Of a DNA stretch of 10,708 nt, positions 4,071 to 10,413 are shown one piece after another. Each line of letters starts with the position of its first letter. Position 1 is the first letter of the stretch. Origin of the DNA: a virus (lineage: Duplodnaviria > Heunggongvirae > Uroviricota > Caudoviricetes); the IMG/VR virus record IMGVR_UViG_2690316105_000022; one strand, written 5' to 3'. The position numbers and the translations under genes are program-made. The notes under the pieces are model-generated. The model had not been told where the DNA came from and ran no database searches. It saw only the letters and a list, made by a program, of their open reading frames with translations.

Positions 4071-5228
4071 ATGCCGAGAATAATCGAATTACGCCAGCAG
4101 AAAACCGCCATTAAAAATCAGATGCGCGACATGCTGGAGAACGCGGAAAAAGAAAACCGCAGCCTTAACGATGCAGAGGGCGCAAAATTTGACGAATTAC
4201 GCGCTAAAGCTGAATCCCTCGATAAAGACATTTCCCGCCTTGAAGCCATTGCAGACGAAGAGCGCAGCAAGCCAGGTAAAAGCAGCCAGACCACTGACCA
4301 GGCAGAACTCCGAAACTACATCCTGACAGGTGAAACCCGTGCATTAAGTACAGGTGTCCCCGCTGATGGTGGTTATACCGTTATCCCTGAACTGAACACC
4401 GAAATCATGCGAATACTGGCGGATGAGTCCACCATGCGCCGCATCTGTACCGTGAAAAAAATCAGCAGCAACGAGTTTAAGCAGCTTGTTTCCGCTGGCG
4501 GTGCGACCGTTAACCTCGGTGAAGAGGGTAAGGCACGCGAACAGACCAGCACCCCGCAGATTAACGAGGTGAGCATCAAGCTGTATCCGGTCTATGCGTA
4601 CCCGCGCACCACGCAGGAAATCGTGGATTTTTCCGATGTGGACATCCTTTCATGGCTGACGGGCGAGATTGGCGACACCTTCACGGAAACCGAAGAAAGC
4701 GATCTGGTTGTGGGCGACGGTGACAAAAAAGCAAAAGGCTTTTTATCCGTACCCCGTGCAGAGAAGAACGACAAAGAACGTGATTTTGGTACGTTGCAGG
4801 TAATTAAGCCTTCTGAGTCTCTTGCGTGGACATCTGCGGACCCGCTGATCGATCTGAAATTTGCATTACGTAAAAAATACCGCAAGAACGCGGTATGGGT
4901 GGTTAACTCCACGACGGCGGCAAAACTCCAGAAGGTGAAGAATGCGAACGGGGATTATATATGGCGTGACCGTTTACAGGCGGGTGATCCTGACACATTG
5001 CTGGGCCTTCCGGTCGAATATCTGGAGTTTATGCCGGATAACGTTATTGCCCTGGGTGACTTCAAACGCGGTTACTACATTGTTGATCACGAAACGGGTG
5101 TTCGCACCAGACCGGACAACCTGACAGAACCAGGATTCATCAAAATTTTCACGCAGAAATATTTAGGCGGTGGCGTGGTGGATTCGAACGCGATCAAGAT
5201 TCTGGAACTGCCACAGGACGACGATTAA
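4071..5228 (+). CDS. Major capsid protein, HK97-fold family, with N-terminal coiled-coil (delta/scaffolding-like) domain
   Basis: 385-aa ORF. The first ~70 residues are a charged, coiled-coil-like region (ELRQQKTAIKNQMRDMLENAEKENRSLNDAEGAKFDELRAKAESLDKDISRLEAIADEE) typical of HK97-type delta domains; the remainder has the size and motif feel of HK97-family capsid proteins. Sits directly upstream of a prohead protease and portal. Confidence 0.88.
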   Translation: MPRIIELRQQKTAIKNQMRDMLENAEKENRSLNDAEGAKFDELRAKAESLDKDISRLEAIADEERSKPGKSSQTTDQAELRNYILTGETRALSTGVPADGGYTVIPELNTEIMRILADESTMRRICTVKKISSNEFKQLVSAGGATVNLGEEGKAREQTSTPQINEVSIKLYPVYAYPRTTQEIVDFSDVDILSWLTGEIGDTFTETEESDLVVGDGDKKAKGFLSVPRAEKNDKERDFGTLQVIKPSESLAWTSADPLIDLKFALRKKYRKNAVWVVNSTTAAKLQKVKNANGDYIWRDRLQAGDPDTLLGLPVEYLEFMPDNVIALGDFKRGYYIVDHETGVRTRPDNLTEPGFIKIFTQKYLGGGVVDSNAIKILELPQDDD

Positions 5229-5238
5229 CAGCATACAG

Positions 5239-5269
5239 AAGGGGCTAAAAAGCCCCTTTAGTGTTTTAT
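5239..5269 (+). terminator. Hairpin with interrupted T tract after the capsid gene (possible partial terminator)
   Basis: 8-bp stem AAGGGGCT / AGCCCCTT with AAAA loop (5239-5258), followed by TAGTGTTTT. Confidence 0.45.
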
Positions 5270-5283
5270 GGGTGAAAAAAATT

Positions 5284-5841
5284 ATGAAGAGTATGGAAAT
5301 CCGGTCATCGGAAATCACCACCAGCGCCAGCAACACGCTGACGGGTTACGTTGTTCGCTGGAATAACCTTTCTGATCTGCTATGGGGTGAGTTTTACGAA
5401 AAATTTCAGCGGGGGGCGTTTACTGAGTGGCTTGCGGCGGGTAATGACGTTCGCGGCCTGTATGAGCATGACCACAGCATGTTACTGGGGCGCACCCGTT
5501 CCGGATCGCTGAAACTGGAAGAGGACGACACAGGGTTACGCTTTGAACTGACGCCACCGGATACCAGTACAGGGCGGGACGTTATCGAACTGGTTAAGCG
5601 TGGTGATATATCCGGCATGAGCTTTGGCTTTCGTTCCCGTAAGGATGTATGGGATACCACAACAGATCCATGCGTGCGCACTGTGCTGGTTGCGGAACTG
5701 TACGAAATTACCGTCACATCCGTACCGGCTTACCCTGATTCCGGCGTGGAGCTGGCCCGCCGTTCCCTGTACGAGCAGCACCCCGAAAAAATGCCGCGTG
5801 CGGATAATCGCCGCTGGTGGGCGGATTTAGCGGGGGTGTGA
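5284..5841 (+). CDS. Prohead maturation protease, HK97 family (S78/U35-like)
   Basis: The ORF contains LTGYVVRWN...GAF...DVRGLYEHDHSMLLGRTRSGSLKLEEDDTGLRFEL..P.T..GRDVIELVKRGDISGMSFGFR...TVPAYPDSGVEL, closely resembling HK97-type prohead protease motifs as I recall them. Start chosen at the ATG at 5284, downstream of the capsid stop; the track's 5170 start would overlap the capsid gene. Confidence 0.82.
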   Translation: MKSMEIRSSEITTSASNTLTGYVVRWNNLSDLLWGEFYEKFQRGAFTEWLAAGNDVRGLYEHDHSMLLGRTRSGSLKLEEDDTGLRFELTPPDTSTGRDVIELVKRGDISGMSFGFRSRKDVWDTTTDPCVRTVLVAELYEITVTSVPAYPDSGVELARRSLYEQHPEKMPRADNRRWWADLAGV

Positions 5842-5842
5842 T

Positions 5843-7054
5843 ATGTGGCCTTTCAGAAGAAAAAAAGAGCAGCGCAGCATGACGCTTGATGAATTTATGG
5901 CGCTGGCTGGCACATCGAACACGGGGGCGGGTGAGTACGTATCATCGGGGACAGCGGAATCACTCCCCGCCGTCATGAACGCCGTCACGGTCATCTCTGA
6001 GGCGGTGGCTACTATGCCATGCTACCTGTACCTGGTACGCAATGAGAAGGGGAAGGAGGCCCGCGAGTGGCTTGATTCTCATCCGGTCGATCATATCCTC
6101 AACGAGCGCCCGAACGCATGGCAAACCCCCTACCAGTTTAAGCGAATGATGATCCGCCACTGCCTGTTAAACGGTAATGCTTACGCGGTGATTCAGTGGG
6201 GGCGTGATGGTTTTCCGGCGGCTTTACATCCTTACCCGCCGCAGTCGGTGAACGTGGAGCAGACAGGAGAACACAACTGGCGCTATTGCATCACTGACGC
6301 CTACACCGGAAACACCCGCAACTATTTACCGTGGGAAGTACTTCACCTTCGTTACTCCACGGATGACGGCTTTATGGGGCGCTCACCTGTAACCATCTGC
6401 CGCGAATCGCTGGGGCTTGGGCTGGCCCAACAACGCCACGGCGCGAGCGTGATGCGTGATGGCATGATGGCGGCAGGGGTTATCACGTCAGGCGAATGGC
6501 TGGACGGCGTGAAGGGCAAACAGGCATTAGCCGCACTGGAACGCTATAAAGGGGCCAAAAACGCCGGAAAAACGCCCATCCTTGAAGGGGGCATGAGTTA
6601 CCAGCAGCTGGGCATGAGTAACCAGGACGCCGAATGGCTGGCCTCCCGTCGCTTCACCATTGAAGACATCGCCCGAATGTTCAACGTCTCGCCGATTTTT
6701 CTGCAGGAATACAGCAACAGCACCTACAGCAATTTCAGCGAGGCAAGCCGCGCATTTCTCACCATGACGATGCGCCCGTGGCTGGCGAACTTTGAGCAGC
6801 AGATAAAAAACGCCTTGCTGGTGGTCTCGCCTGTACCTGGTATCCGGTATCAGGTGGAGTTTGACAGCGCGGACCTGTTACGGGCCACACCTGGCGAACG
6901 CTTTGCCACCTATGAGCGAGGCATCAAATCCGGTGTTATGTGCCCGAACGAAGCCCGCGAACGAGAAGGGTTGTCTCCGCGTGATGGTGGTGATGAGTTC
7001 AGCCAGGCATGGAAACAGGAAGTAAAAATCAGCGAGGGAGAAAAACCGGAATGA
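5843..7054 (+). CDS. Portal protein, HK97 family
   Basis: 403-aa ORF of portal size and character lying between the protease and head-completion genes. RBS-like GGGGG is 6 nt upstream; the start is 2 nt after the protease stop. Confidence 0.85.
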   Translation: MWPFRRKKEQRSMTLDEFMALAGTSNTGAGEYVSSGTAESLPAVMNAVTVISEAVATMPCYLYLVRNEKGKEAREWLDSHPVDHILNERPNAWQTPYQFKRMMIRHCLLNGNAYAVIQWGRDGFPAALHPYPPQSVNVEQTGEHNWRYCITDAYTGNTRNYLPWEVLHLRYSTDDGFMGRSPVTICRESLGLGLAQQRHGASVMRDGMMAAGVITSGEWLDGVKGKQALAALERYKGAKNAGKTPILEGGMSYQQLGMSNQDAEWLASRRFTIEDIARMFNVSPIFLQEYSNSTYSNFSEASRAFLTMTMRPWLANFEQQIKNALLVVSPVPGIRYQVEFDSADLLRATPGERFATYERGIKSGVMCPNEAREREGLSPRDGGDEFSQAWKQEVKISEGEKPE

Positions 7055-7389
7055 ACATAGGGCGACTGCGTGACAGGGTAACGATTCAGACCCTGAAACA
7101 GACCAGAGCCATGACGGGCGAAATACTCGAAACGTGGGAGGACGGTCACACACTCTGGGCAAGCGTGAACATGGTCAGCAGCAAGGAGTCCATTTCATCG
7201 GGTGCAGAGCTGGCGATTGGTACCGTAAGGATCTGGATACGGTACCGGAAGGACATTAACGCCACCAGCCGGATAAAGGTCAATACGGGGCCGCTGGCGG
7301 GGCGTGTACTGAATATCATCGGGCAGCCGCTGCCGGATGCCGCCAGGACACGCCTTGAAATTCTTTGTCGTGAGGGCGCGGAAAAATGA
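7051..7389 (+). CDS. Head-tail adaptor / head closure protein (Phage_H_T_join-like)
   Basis: 112-aa ORF starting MNIGRLRDRVTIQ with W...LWASV and IWIRYRKDI...RI motifs typical of head closure proteins. The ATG at 7051 overlaps the portal stop (ATGA), suggesting translational coupling. Confidence 0.7.
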   Translation: MNIGRLRDRVTIQTLKQTRAMTGEILETWEDGHTLWASVNMVSSKESISSGAELAIGTVRIWIRYRKDINATSRIKVNTGPLAGRVLNIIGQPLPDAARTRLEILCREGAEK

Positions 7390-7682
7390 CAGAAGAACTT
7401 ATCACCCTGGAAGAAGTGAAACTCCATTGCCGCATCGATGGCGACGAGGAAGACCAGTTAATCAGCGGATACATTGCCGCATCGCTTGAGGCGTGCCAGA
7501 TACACATAGGCAGGCGCTTTGATGACGGGCTGGAGTTCACGCCAGCCATAAAGATTGGCTGCATGATGTTTATCGCTCACCTGTATGAGAATCGCCAGAT
7601 TGTCGCGGATAACGCAAAAACACACGTACCCATGACGATTGGCGCACTCTGGACGGCTTACCGTGATGTGGGGGTGTACTGA
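7386..7682 (+). CDS. gp6-like head-tail connector protein
   Basis: 98-aa ORF starting MTEELITLEEVKLHCRIDGDEEDQLISGYIAASLEA, matching the I.LEE.K.HLRID.D.ED.LI...I.AA pattern of gp6-like connector proteins. Start overlaps the preceding stop (ATGA). Confidence 0.7.
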   Translation: MTEELITLEEVKLHCRIDGDEEDQLISGYIAASLEACQIHIGRRFDDGLEFTPAIKIGCMMFIAHLYENRQIVADNAKTHVPMTIGALWTAYRDVGVY

Positions 7683-8122
7683 TGCCGTGGCAACCATTAA
7701 GACGATGTACAGAACCAGGCTGCAACAGGCGCGTGAAGTCCGGCAAGTGTGAGGAGCACAGACGCAGCGCACGCCAGCAGCAGGACAGCCGGAGAGGCAG
7801 CAGCAGGGAGCGAGGGTATACGAGGCAGTGGGAGAAATACCGCGCCATGTATCTGAGTAAAAACCCGTTATGTGCGCATTGCCTGGAAAAAGGAATATAC
7901 ACGCCCGCCGTGGTGGTGGATCACATTATCCCAATCGATGGCGGTAATGATGTTCTCTTCTGGCCTGAGTGGAATCATCAGCCATTGTGCCAGGCGTGTC
8001 ATAACCAGAAAACGAAATGGCTTGATCCGTCCACAAAAAACAAGCGTGCTGCGGGTGGATTCCGTGAGGAGGAAGAACGGGCCGCTAACCGCAATAACTG
8101 GATGTATGGCGCTGATGAATGA
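7682..8122 (+). CDS. HNH endonuclease (terminase-associated type)
   Basis: 146-aa ORF with paired Cys motifs (CTEPGC, CAHC, CQAC) and an HNH core VDHIIPIDGGND...WNHQPLCQACHNQKT, located immediately upstream of terS/terL. Start overlaps the preceding stop (TGATG). Confidence 0.88.
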   Translation: MPWQPLRRCTEPGCNRRVKSGKCEEHRRSARQQQDSRRGSSRERGYTRQWEKYRAMYLSKNPLCAHCLEKGIYTPAVVVDHIIPIDGGNDVLFWPEWNHQPLCQACHNQKTKWLDPSTKNKRAAGGFREEEERAANRNNWMYGADE

Positions 8123-8288
8123 GCGGGAACAAAACCGCCTTATCCGTGGACTTATAAGGCAGCGTGACGCATGGAAGGCACAGGAAACAGGGCATAAAGA
8201 TAAAGCATCAGGACGCGCAGAACGCATCACAGCGACGCGATTAAACGACCGTGACCGCGAGGTTATGGAATGTTTCCGCAATCGCTGA
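8115..8288 (+). CDS. Hypothetical small basic protein (57 aa), uncertain
   Basis: ATG at 8115 overlaps the HNH stop (ATGAATGA) and the ORF runs to a TGA at 8286-8288; an alternative ATG lies at 8106. It fills the otherwise non-coding gap between HNH and the GC-rich intergenic region. No strong RBS and no recognisable family. Confidence 0.3.
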   Translation: MNEREQNRLIRGLIRQRDAWKAQETGHKDKASGRAERITATRLNDRDREVMECFRNR

Positions 8289-8411
8289 TGAGGCAGCCGG
8301 ACGGGGTGGGGGGAGTTTTCAGGACGAACCCGACCCCGCCCAGAACCGAACGCCTCCCCAAATTTTTATGCACGGTAATTTTTTGAAAAATAATCTGGCG
8401 AAAAAATAAGC
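8289..8411. other. Candidate cos / packaging-recognition region upstream of terS
   Basis: GC-rich block with G-runs and complementary C-runs (CGGGGTGGGGGGAG at 8302-8315; CCCGACCCCGCCC at 8329-8341; CGCCTCCCC at 8351-8359), followed by an AT-rich segment (AAATTTTTATGCACGGTAATTTTTTGAAAAATAATCTGGCGAAAAAATAAG) ending at the terS start. Position between HNH and terS is where cos sites sit in HK97-like cos phages. Confidence 0.3.
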
Positions 8412-8768
8412 ATGGCAAGACCACCGAAAGCCCCCGCCTACCTGGATGATATCGCCGTGAAGCAGTGGCGGGAAAAATCGCGGCAGCTTGCGGAACGGGG
8501 AGACCTGACCCCTGCCGACTGGAGTAATCTGGAACTGTATTGCGTCAATTACTCGATATACAGGAAAGCCGTCGCAGACCTTGCGGCGCGCGGGTTCAGC
8601 ATTGTTAACAGTCAGGGCGGAGAGAGCAGAAACCCCGCATTAAGCGCGAAATCCGACGCGGAAAGAGTGATGATAAAAATGGCCTCTTTGCTCGGTTTTG
8701 ACCCGATAAGCCGCCGTAAAAATCCACCGGAAACAGAAGAAGAGGACGAGCTTGACCGCCTGGAATAA
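8412..8768 (+). CDS. terS: Terminase small subunit, P27 family-like
   Basis: 118-aa ORF with the L..YC..Y......A.......G......G.......NP pattern and a C-terminal acidic tail, consistent with P27-family small terminases. Lies directly upstream of, and overlapping, the large terminase gene. Confidence 0.8.
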   Translation: MARPPKAPAYLDDIAVKQWREKSRQLAERGDLTPADWSNLELYCVNYSIYRKAVADLAARGFSIVNSQGGESRNPALSAKSDAERVMIKMASLLGFDPISRRKNPPETEEEDELDRLE

Positions 8769-10413
8769 GTACGCAGAAGACGTAAAAACGGGCAAAATTC
8801 CGGCCTGTAAACGGCTGAAACAGGCCGTTAAACGGTACTTTTCGGACCTTGAAAACCCCCTTTACATGTTCGATCGTGAGGTTGTTGAGCGGTTTATTGC
8901 CTTTCCCAGGGTGTGCCCGCACGTAAAAGGGCCGATGCGTGGAAGACCCATTGAGCTGGAACCGTGGCAGCAGTTTGCCTTTGCGTGCATCCTCGGCTTT
9001 AAGGTTAAGGCCACCGGAAGGCGCAAATACACGAGCGCCTTTATCGAAGTGCCGCGCAAAAATGCGAAATCCACGACAGCCGCGATTCTGGCTAACTGGT
9101 TTCTGATTATGGAGAACGGGCAGCAGGATATTTACACCGCAGCGGTGAGCCGCGACCAGGCGCGGATCGTTTTTGATGATGCGCGTCAGATGTGCCTTTT
9201 ATCCCGACCGTTACGCAAGAGAGTGAATATTCAGGCCCACAAGGTGATGCACCCGAAAAGCAACAGCCTGTTAAAGCCGCTGGCAGCAAAAGCGGCAACC
9301 ATCGAGGGTACTAACCCCAGCCTTGCCATTGTGGACGAATACCACTTACACCCCGATAACGGCGTTTATTCTGCGCTTGAACTGGGGATGGGGGCACGTC
9401 CCGAAGGGCTGTTATTTGCCATTACCACATCAGGCAGCAACGTCGTTTCAGCCTGTAAACAGCACTATGATTATTGCTGCCAGATCCTGGACGGCGAAGA
9501 GGTCAACGATTCAATTTTTGTACTGATTTACGAACTGGACGACGAAAACGAGGTTGATGATCCGGAGATGTGGATAAAGGCGAACCCTAATATTGATGTT
9601 TCCGTGGATCGTGAAAAACTGGCCTCAACCATCCAGAAAGCGCGGGGCATACCGTCGCAATGGGTGGAGATGATGACAAAGCGATTTAATATCTGGTGTC
9701 AGGGGGCTACCCCGTGGATGGGTAACGGAGCATGGGCTGAGTGCGCCGGAAAGTTCACGGAGGAAGATTTACACGGTCAGGAATGTTACGCGGGGCTGGA
9801 TTTATCATCCACAAGCGACATTTCCAGCGTGTGCTATGCCTTTCCGGTCGGTAAAAATATCATGCTGGTTTCCCGTCATTATCTGCCGGAGTTCCAGTTA
9901 CAGAACCCAGCCAATAAAAATCGCGCTATCTATCGCCAGTGGGCACGGGCGGGATGGATACGCACAACGCCAGGGGACTGCATTGATTACGACCGGATAC
10001 GTGATGACATCATGCAGGACGCGGAAAAATTTAATATCAGGCTGGTGGGCTTCGATACGTGGAACGCAACGCATCTCAGGACGCAATTACAGGGGGCAGG
10101 CTTTGAGGTGGAGCCGTTCCCGCAAACCTACCTTCGATTCAGTCCGGCGGCGAAATCGTTCGAAGTTTTTGTTAACCGCAGGGTTATCGTGCATCGTGGT
10201 GATCCGGTGTTGTCCTGGTCGATGAGTAACGTCGTGATGCAGAGTGACGCGAACGCCAATATCAAGCCGAACAAGAAAAAATCACCGAACAAGATAGACC
10301 CGAGCGTGGCGGCACTGATGGCGTTTGGTACATTCCAGGCAGAGCATGAGGATTTTGCTTTTGATATAAGCGACAGCCACCGCCAAAAACTGGAAGAATT
10401 TAGCGGGGTGTAA
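8752..10413 (+). CDS. terL: Terminase large subunit (ATPase plus nuclease)
   Basis: 553-aa ORF with a Walker A-like motif (VPRKNAKSTTAAI), a Walker B-like LAIVDEYH segment and a C-terminal nuclease-like region. Overlaps the terS 3' end by 17 nt. Confidence 0.9.
   Translation: MTAWNKYAEDVKTGKIPACKRLKQAVKRYFSDLENPLYMFDREVVERFIAFPRVCPHVKGPMRGRPIELEPWQQFAFACILGFKVKATGRRKYTSAFIEVPRKNAKSTTAAILANWFLIMENGQQDIYTAAVSRDQARIVFDDARQMCLLSRPLRKRVNIQAHKVMHPKSNSLLKPLAAKAATIEGTNPSLAIVDEYHLHPDNGVYSALELGMGARPEGLLFAITTSGSNVVSACKQHYDYCCQILDGEEVNDSIFVLIYELDDENEVDDPEMWIKANPNIDVSVDREKLASTIQKARGIPSQWVEMMTKRFNIWCQGATPWMGNGAWAECAGKFTEEDLHGQECYAGLDLSSTSDISSVCYAFPVGKNIMLVSRHYLPEFQLQNPANKNRAIYRQWARAGWIRTTPGDCIDYDRIRDDIMQDAEKFNIRLVGFDTWNATHLRTQLQGAGFEVEPFPQTYLRFSPAAKSFEVFVNRRVIVHRGDPVLSWSMSNVVMQSDANANIKPNKKKSPNKIDPSVAALMAFGTFQAEHEDFAFDISDSHRQKLEEFSGV

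Follow-up and report, generated by a model that had tools for sequence, protein, structure and literature searches.

The 10,708-nt stretch of DNA analysed here, referred to below as the window, raises the question of where the DNA of a cf-PICI (capsid-forming phage-inducible chromosomal island, a kind of phage satellite) is cut and its packaging begins. These elements package only their own DNA, in small capsids of their own, and spread across species. It is well established that, in systems of this type, the cos site is located between the HNH gene and terS. The original prediction, made from the sequence of the window, had singled out the intergenic gap at 8289-8411 as a candidate cos site. 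We conclude that this gap is very probably the cos site of the cf-PICI, at which its own DNA is cut and packaging starts. This reading is based on the gene set, on a conserved non-coding module, on a link to the cos junctions of phages ST64B and SfI, and on breaks in virion-derived assemblies of related elements.

Results

The packaging genes and their host island

Judged by its gene content, the + strand of the window has the gene order of the packaging operon of Proteobacterial cf-PICIs (Table 1), as described in the available part of 10.1101/2022.09.08.507074, and neither tail nor lysis genes were found in the window. The segment 2418-10695 shares 98.2% identity with a 15.9-kb island located in tqsA of E. 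coli 2015C-3163, which additionally has int, an HTH regulator, primase and SSB. Moreover, the segment 7600-8900 was found in 533 of 5,426 complete E. coli genomes. In the window, the IS66-family element meets the cf-PICI at the gene that lies upstream of SSB. It occupies the side that in the E. coli 2015C-3163 island holds int, regulator and primase; this half has been displaced or lost in the window copy, and whatever follows IS66 falls outside the window. Since IS66 stands in place of that half, the window copy may no longer be mobile.

The prediction had relied on an HK97-like, cos-type packaging set, and the protein matches agree with it. The sole PDB match of TerL is HK97 TerL (6Z6D, E=1e-43), the PDB entry matched by the HNH protein (5H0M) is the packaging HNH of GVE2, and the P27-family TerS is homologous to that of SfV (hhalign probability 98.7%; about 36% identity to the TerS of SfV-like phages by tblastn). 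The HNH protein also shares 37% identity with that of SfI. PDB searches with TerS, both as a single sequence and as a profile, returned only chance-level matches (above E=0.7), and hhalign found no relationship between TerS and HK97 gp1 (probability 0.1%).

The gap had further been placed between HNH and terS. Its downstream border holds, with the terS ATG at 8412, but the HNH gene does not border it, as a 60-aa ORF intervenes. This ORF overlaps the HNH stop codon and ends just before the cos region. It is present in the Klebsiella cf-PICI, as a homologue with a conserved C-terminus, and absent from SfV, SfI and ST64B, where cos follows HNH directly. We speculate that it may encode a packaging accessory protein.

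Table 1. Annotated and predicted features of the 10,708-nt window
Feature	Position	Strand	Supporting matches and remarks
IS66-family element	1 to ~2417	minus	tnpC 1-1539, tnpB 1588-1935, tnpA 1932-2336
HK97-fold major capsid protein	4071-5228	+	
S78 prohead protease	5170-5841	+	
Portal	5843-7054	+	
Head completion protein	7009-7389	+	
gp6-like connector	7386-7682	+	
HNH endonuclease, packaging accessory nuclease	7682-8122	+	Pfam HNH PF01844; phrog_144; PDB 5H0M E=2e-17
Small conserved ORF, 60 aa, hypothetical in RefSeq (closest genome)	8106-8288	+	phrog_3173 E=1e-34
Non-coding gap, predicted cos region as a whole	8289-8411	+	Family profile match 8300-8396
G-box GGGGTGGGGGGAG, upstream of the predicted cut (right genome end)	8303-8315	+	Identity 0.81, 68 elements
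Spacer of fixed length	8316-8343	+	8316-8325 TTTTCAGGAC semi-conserved, identity 0.67; 8326-8343 variable, 0.56
GAACC and C-box	8344-8359	+	Pairwise identity 0.78; in alignment with the HK97 cut and with TGCCCGCCCC, the overhang mapped in SfI
A/T module AAATTTTTATGCACGGTAATTTTTTGAAAAATAATCT, predicted TerS-binding, bendable segment (left genome end)	8360-8396	+	Identity 0.83
terS, small terminase, P27 / Terminase_4 family	8412-8768	+	Pfam PF05119 E=1e-23
terL, large terminase, HK97 type	8752-10413	+	Pfam TerL_ATPase and TerL_nuclease
ORF after terL, final island gene in the complete relative	10427 onward (to window end 10708)	+	phrog_1561 E=1e-56

A conserved non-coding module upstream of terS

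The gap is non-coding, bounded upstream by the TGA stop of the small ORF (8286-8288) and a second in-frame TGA, and downstream by the terS start codon. As anticipated, it passes from GC-rich to AT-rich sequence: GC content is 70.4% at 8289-8359, a value matched by 0.6% of the 71-nt segments of the window, and 25% at 8360-8411, as low as in 0.05% of the 52-nt segments. The sharpest GC-to-AT contrast of the entire window falls here and is greatest precisely at 8289. The density of G/C runs of at least 4 nt (GGGG at 8303, GGGGGG at 8308, CCCC at 8334 and at 8356) and that of A/T runs of at least 5 nt (at 8363, 8379, 8386 and 8401) also peak in the gap.

Scanning one genome per species on the basis of terS yielded 80 loci, which belong to Enterobacterales, Aeromonas, Orbaceae and Pasteurellaceae. 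Nearly all of them carry upstream of terS the same module, shared by ~70 related elements and composed of a G-box, a spacer of fixed length, a C-box and an A/T tract. Read 5' to 3', the consensus starts with the G-box GGGGTGGGGG(AGG), followed by TTTCAGGAC or ATCAAAAATGAC and ~20 variable nt; next come GGAACC-R-CCCGCCCCCTC, AAATTTTTACGCACGG-YRW-TTTTTTTGAAAATAAA, ~20 nt including the ribosome-binding site, and ATG. Among 23 diverse elements, the spacing from G-box to A/T tract is constant within 1 nt. The module is always found at the HNH-terS junction, at a fixed distance from terS. Furthermore, a profile built from the non-E. coli elements gave one match in the window (74.5 bits, E=4e-22), and the profile search found no second copy there.

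Identity figures are mean pairwise values over 68 distinct sequences, a sample rich in Xenorhabdus, with a bias that is equal for all column classes. The A/T module is the best-conserved part of the gap, with 23 of its 37 columns at 90% or above. The core at 8344-8396 reaches a pairwise identity of 0.81, compared with 0.85, 0.91 and 0.55 at terS codon positions 1, 2 and 3, respectively, and displays no 3-nt periodicity. Since this value is near those of codon positions 1 and 2 and far above that of position 3, the alignment shows strong purifying selection on the core, approximately as strong as on amino-acid-determining positions.

Two relatives carry rearrangements in this region. In Xenorhabdus hominickii (L131, ~9855-9890), the G-box has grown to about five tandem GGGGTA units. 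In Shigella flexneri SFBU1023 (L086:9990-10010), a deletion has joined two copies of CCCCGCC, equivalent to window 8334-8340 and 8430-8436. The island is degenerate, as it has lost the cos core together with the first seven terS codons. We considered the start of this deletion in the gap as a possible cos-related event and rejected it in favour of a CCCCGCC microhomology deletion.

The G and C runs do not form a conserved stem

The original prediction had emphasized interdigitated G-runs and complementary C-runs. The inverted repeat is real (GGACGGGGTGGGG at 8299-8311 versus CCCGACCCCGCCC at 8329-8341), but G-run/C-run complementarity in the gap shows no excess over composition, and the first C-run, CCCGACCCCGCCC, sits in the variable part of the spacer and is not conserved. 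A gene start directly preceded by an A/T-rich stretch, combined with a GC-rich inverted repeat for which an RNA fold of -39.8 kcal/mol is possible, might instead suggest that the gap controls transcription of terS-terL, either as an internal promoter or, through a G-run/C-run hairpin, as an intrinsic terminator/attenuator, and holds no packaging site. We regard this as very unlikely. Neither a sigma-70-like site on the + strand nor a terminator-like site was found in the gap, and the hairpin is unsupported, the fold being no better than that of shuffled sequence (z = -1.5 for RNA and +0.44 for DNA). The 3' arm of the repeat is precisely the part that falls in the non-conserved spacer. Over 23 elements, the consensus structure amounts to -5.4 kcal/mol, essentially without covariation, and an Rfam search of the gap returned no match. 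Transcriptional control would also leave unexplained both the match to the ST64B/SfI cos junction and the assembly breaks reported below.

The module aligns with mapped cos sites of phages

When searched against phage records by blastn, the gap matched two small or atypical records and no others, and its link to SfI and ST64B therefore required the profile. The cf-PICI profile matches the HNH-terS junction of ST64B with E=7e-5 in a 0.1-Mb search space. Its best matches in the junction constructs of HK97, SfV and SfI were non-significant (E=0.18 to 2.2, with 0.18 for the HK97 cos), though all of them fell on the cos junction. The ST64B match favours the cos reading.

The cohesive end of SfI was mapped by run-off sequencing of virion DNA as the 10-nt TGCCCGCCCC (PMC3636060). 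The SfI record, whose last gene is HNH, ends in GGGGAGGGGCGGG, 31 nt and TGCCCGCCCC, and restarts with GTCGTTTTTTTATACCCGCGAAAAATGAAATTT ahead of the terS ATG. The ST64B junction, which contains CTGCCCGCCCCCTCGAATTTTTATACCCGCG, is near-identical to this mapped cos, and the core GCCCGCCCCCTC-R-AATTTTTA is common to ST64B and the cf-PICI consensus. The distance between the end of the G-box and the top-strand cut is 41 nt in SfI and 42 nt in HK97. In the Klebsiella island and in the window, a 41-nt offset from the G-box falls on the aligned C-box. Carried over by alignment, the SfI overhang corresponds to CGAACGCCTC at 8347-8356 in the window, and the HK97 alignment gives the same top-strand position. 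We therefore predict from these alignments a 10-nt cohesive end at 8347-8356, bounded by a bottom-strand nick at 8346|8347 and a top-strand nick at 8356|8357, all to within about 3 nt. The window C-box CGAACGCCTC matches the SfI overhang TGCCCGCCCC at 6 of 10 positions.

SfI, SfV and ST64B resemble the window in several respects. The site is located between the gene for HNH and a terS of the P27 family, the G-box GGGG-N-GGGG is found 41 nt upstream of the top-strand cut (predicted in the window), and a C-rich overhang (likewise predicted in the window) is directly followed by T/A tracts. Unlike these phages, the host of the window module is a ~16-kb satellite lacking tail and lysis genes, with an additional small ORF between HNH and cos. 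In the E. coli lineage, moreover, the C-box has diverged (CGAACGCCTC) and the A/T module reads ATGCACGGTAATTTTTTGAAAAAT instead of ATACCCGCGAAAAATGAAATTT; the ends, which were mapped in SfI, are predicted for the window by alignment.

The cos site of HK97 has a 10-nt 3' overhang, and gp74, an HNH protein, stimulates its cleavage (PMC11331095; Kala et al. 2014 as cited there). The segment bound by HK97 TerS, at +15 to +29 downstream of the cut, covers a G/C step and an A-tract of 9 bp (PMC11331095). The window shares with HK97 a homologous TerL (6Z6D), an HNH partner, and a layout consisting of a G-box, ~42 nt, a G/C-rich overhang and an ACGC..GATTTTTTT-like A-tract, ~50 nt before terS. The window sequence ATGCACGGTAATTTTTTGAAAAAT lies at the place equivalent to the HK97 TerS site. 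On the other hand, the window TerS belongs to another sequence family, and HK97 has 319 nt between HNH and cos. As the window TerS has no detectable homology to HK97 gp1, the HK97 TerS-DNA model serves here as an analogy only. The original prediction of a cut site followed by a bendable, terminase-binding stretch agrees with the HK97 layout (PMC11331095), with one correction: the cut is predicted in the second C-run and not in the stem-like G/C pair.

Two described cf-PICIs, EcCIEDL933 and KpCIDSM30104 (10.1101/2022.09.08.507074; 10.1101/2025.02.11.637232), have the same gene order and content as the window, and KpCIDSM30104, the Klebsiella island, carries the same cos module. They differ from the window copy in that the latter is flanked by IS66. 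In the available parts of these two sources, cos packaging is stated for both islands and cos coordinates are not given.

Virion-derived assemblies of relatives break at the gap

The phage record vB_KppS-Ant (LR881103) derives from a virion preparation on K. pneumoniae DSM 30104, sequenced by Nextera XT and assembled with SPAdes, with no reordering described (PMC8006926). It is the cf-PICI KpCIDSM30104 of this strain, whose packaged DNA is reported to form concatemers through cohesive ends (10.1101/2025.02.11.637232, in the part available). The contig ends in GGGGTGGGGGAGGTTTTCAGGAC and starts 22 nt before terS. Compared with the integrated copy in strain ATCC 13883 (locus L087), it lacks exactly 69 nt (L087:9910-9978), which correspond to window 8326-8394 and include the C-box and the A/T module. 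PQ569648, a second virion-derived record, carries in its last 15.9 kb a cf-PICI with 88-89% identity to Ant. This island runs from the second base of terS to a point 3 nt short of the stop codon of the small ORF, and the whole gap is missing (~134 nt).

Linear assemblies without the junction are as expected of unique ends, with tagmentation losing the terminal tens of bases. The 69-nt and ~134-nt breaks in these Klebsiella relatives bracket the cut and do not pinpoint it, and tagmentation bias in sequence of extreme composition could contribute to them. The end of the Ant record at TTTTCAGGAC was considered as the exact cut and rejected, since the integrated copy shows 69 nt missing and not ~10. 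More than 150 related IMG/VR contigs, mostly prophage calls in isolate genomes, were examined for ends at cos, and among those listed none ends there.

In pac phages, TerS typically recognises a site in or close to its own gene, and the gap might accordingly be a pac site, where packaging would start and proceed by headful measurement to yield permuted, terminally redundant DNA. Several observations make this highly improbable. An HK97-type TerL with an HNH partner is a signature of cos systems (Kala et al. 2014 as cited in PMC11331095), the virion assemblies of the relatives are linear with the junction missing and not circular, and the Klebsiella island is reported to form cohesive-end concatemers. 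In addition, the ST64B junction matched by the profile is near-identical to that of SfI, where cos is a true cohesive end of 10 nt.

The region might also be conserved because it serves as a replication origin, a regulator or IHF binding site, a recombination site or some other functional DNA element, with the true cos elsewhere in the island, but this seems to us equally improbable. G-rich and A/T-rich modules do occur at origins too, and a single IHF-like match with one mismatch is present at 8376-8388 on the minus strand. However, this match is not kept across the cf-PICI relatives, which show no conserved IHF site. The constant position of the module at the HNH-terS junction, its fixed distance to terS and its single occurrence in the window also argue against such a function, and the assembly breaks map to the gap and nowhere else. 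The proposal that the gap is a cos site is supported, in contrast, by the conserved module, by the ST64B profile match, and by the Klebsiella breaks together with the reported cohesive ends.

Discussion

We propose the following model for packaging at the cos site. After induction and replication, the P27-family TerS of the island would bind the A/T module (~8360-8396), just downstream of the cut. The HK97-type TerL, with the help of the adjacent HNH protein, would then nick the C-box in a staggered manner (8346|8347 and 8356|8357) to yield, as in HK97 and SfI, a cohesive 3' end of 10 nt. Packaging would proceed rightwards, terS side first, towards terS-terL, into the small capsids made by the island. 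When the next cos is reached, the last conserved element to enter would be the G-box, which lies 41 nt upstream of the cut and may help termination. In this model, we infer the binding of TerS to the A/T module, the exact nick positions, the polarity of the overhang and the role of the G-box, which may be either termination or the positioning of HNH/TerL. As TerS is not detectably related to HK97 gp1, its presumed mode of binding to the A/T module follows from analogy and not from family membership.

The cos site of lambda (cosQ-cosN-cosB) shares the same modular logic, in which an upstream element for termination is followed by a nicking site and, downstream of it, by a bendable TerS-binding region next to the terminase genes. 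It differs from the window in its 12-nt 5' overhang, its Nu1-type TerS with R sites, its IHF site and the lack of an HNH protein. By analogy, one might speculate that the G-box is the equivalent of lambda cosQ.

A broader proposal, which we advance tentatively and consider rather doubtful as a whole, is that one three-part cos layout (a G-box with a spacer fixed at 31 nt, a C-rich overhang of 10 nt, and an A/T module) is common to the cf-PICIs of at least four bacterial families and to phages of the SfV/ST64B/HK97 type. The G-box would then be an unrecognised functional element, cosQ-like or an HNH docking site, and lineage-specific changes in the overhang and the A/T module (E. coli CGAACGCCTC versus Klebsiella CACCCGCCCC) would make cf-PICI packaging exclusive of phages and other cf-PICIs.

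Our analysis adds to the original prediction a conserved consensus and a predicted overhang, and shows that the G/C stem is not the conserved feature. While the understanding of cos packaging itself is unchanged, the DNA site that gives cf-PICIs their packaging specificity, which is without coordinates in the available parts of the cf-PICI papers, is here placed to ~100 bp. This location, together with the consensus and the predicted overhang, is a direct target for cos-plasmid transduction tests, and the consensus offers a way to predict which islands are able to cross-package.

Locating cos also mends annotation, since many database terS models run through the site. In an E. coli lineage of ~89% identity, many TerS models are 165 aa long and extend 47 codons further upstream, across the cos region (equivalents 8271-8411), which is likely a gene-calling artefact. 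Records of the Klebsiella relatives show other peculiarities. PQ569648.1, entitled 'Klebsiella phage P12620-1, complete genome' (106.5 kb), consists of the 15.9-kb cf-PICI (90645-106503, L288) appended to ~90.6 kb of unrelated sequence, and looks like a concatenation of two contigs. vB_KppS-Ant (LR881103.1, L001) was published as a filamentous ssDNA phage of a novel genus; it carries capsid, portal, HNH, terS, terL, integrase and primase genes. The annotation of its segment 2036-4333 as 'tail length tape measure protein' may deserve a look.
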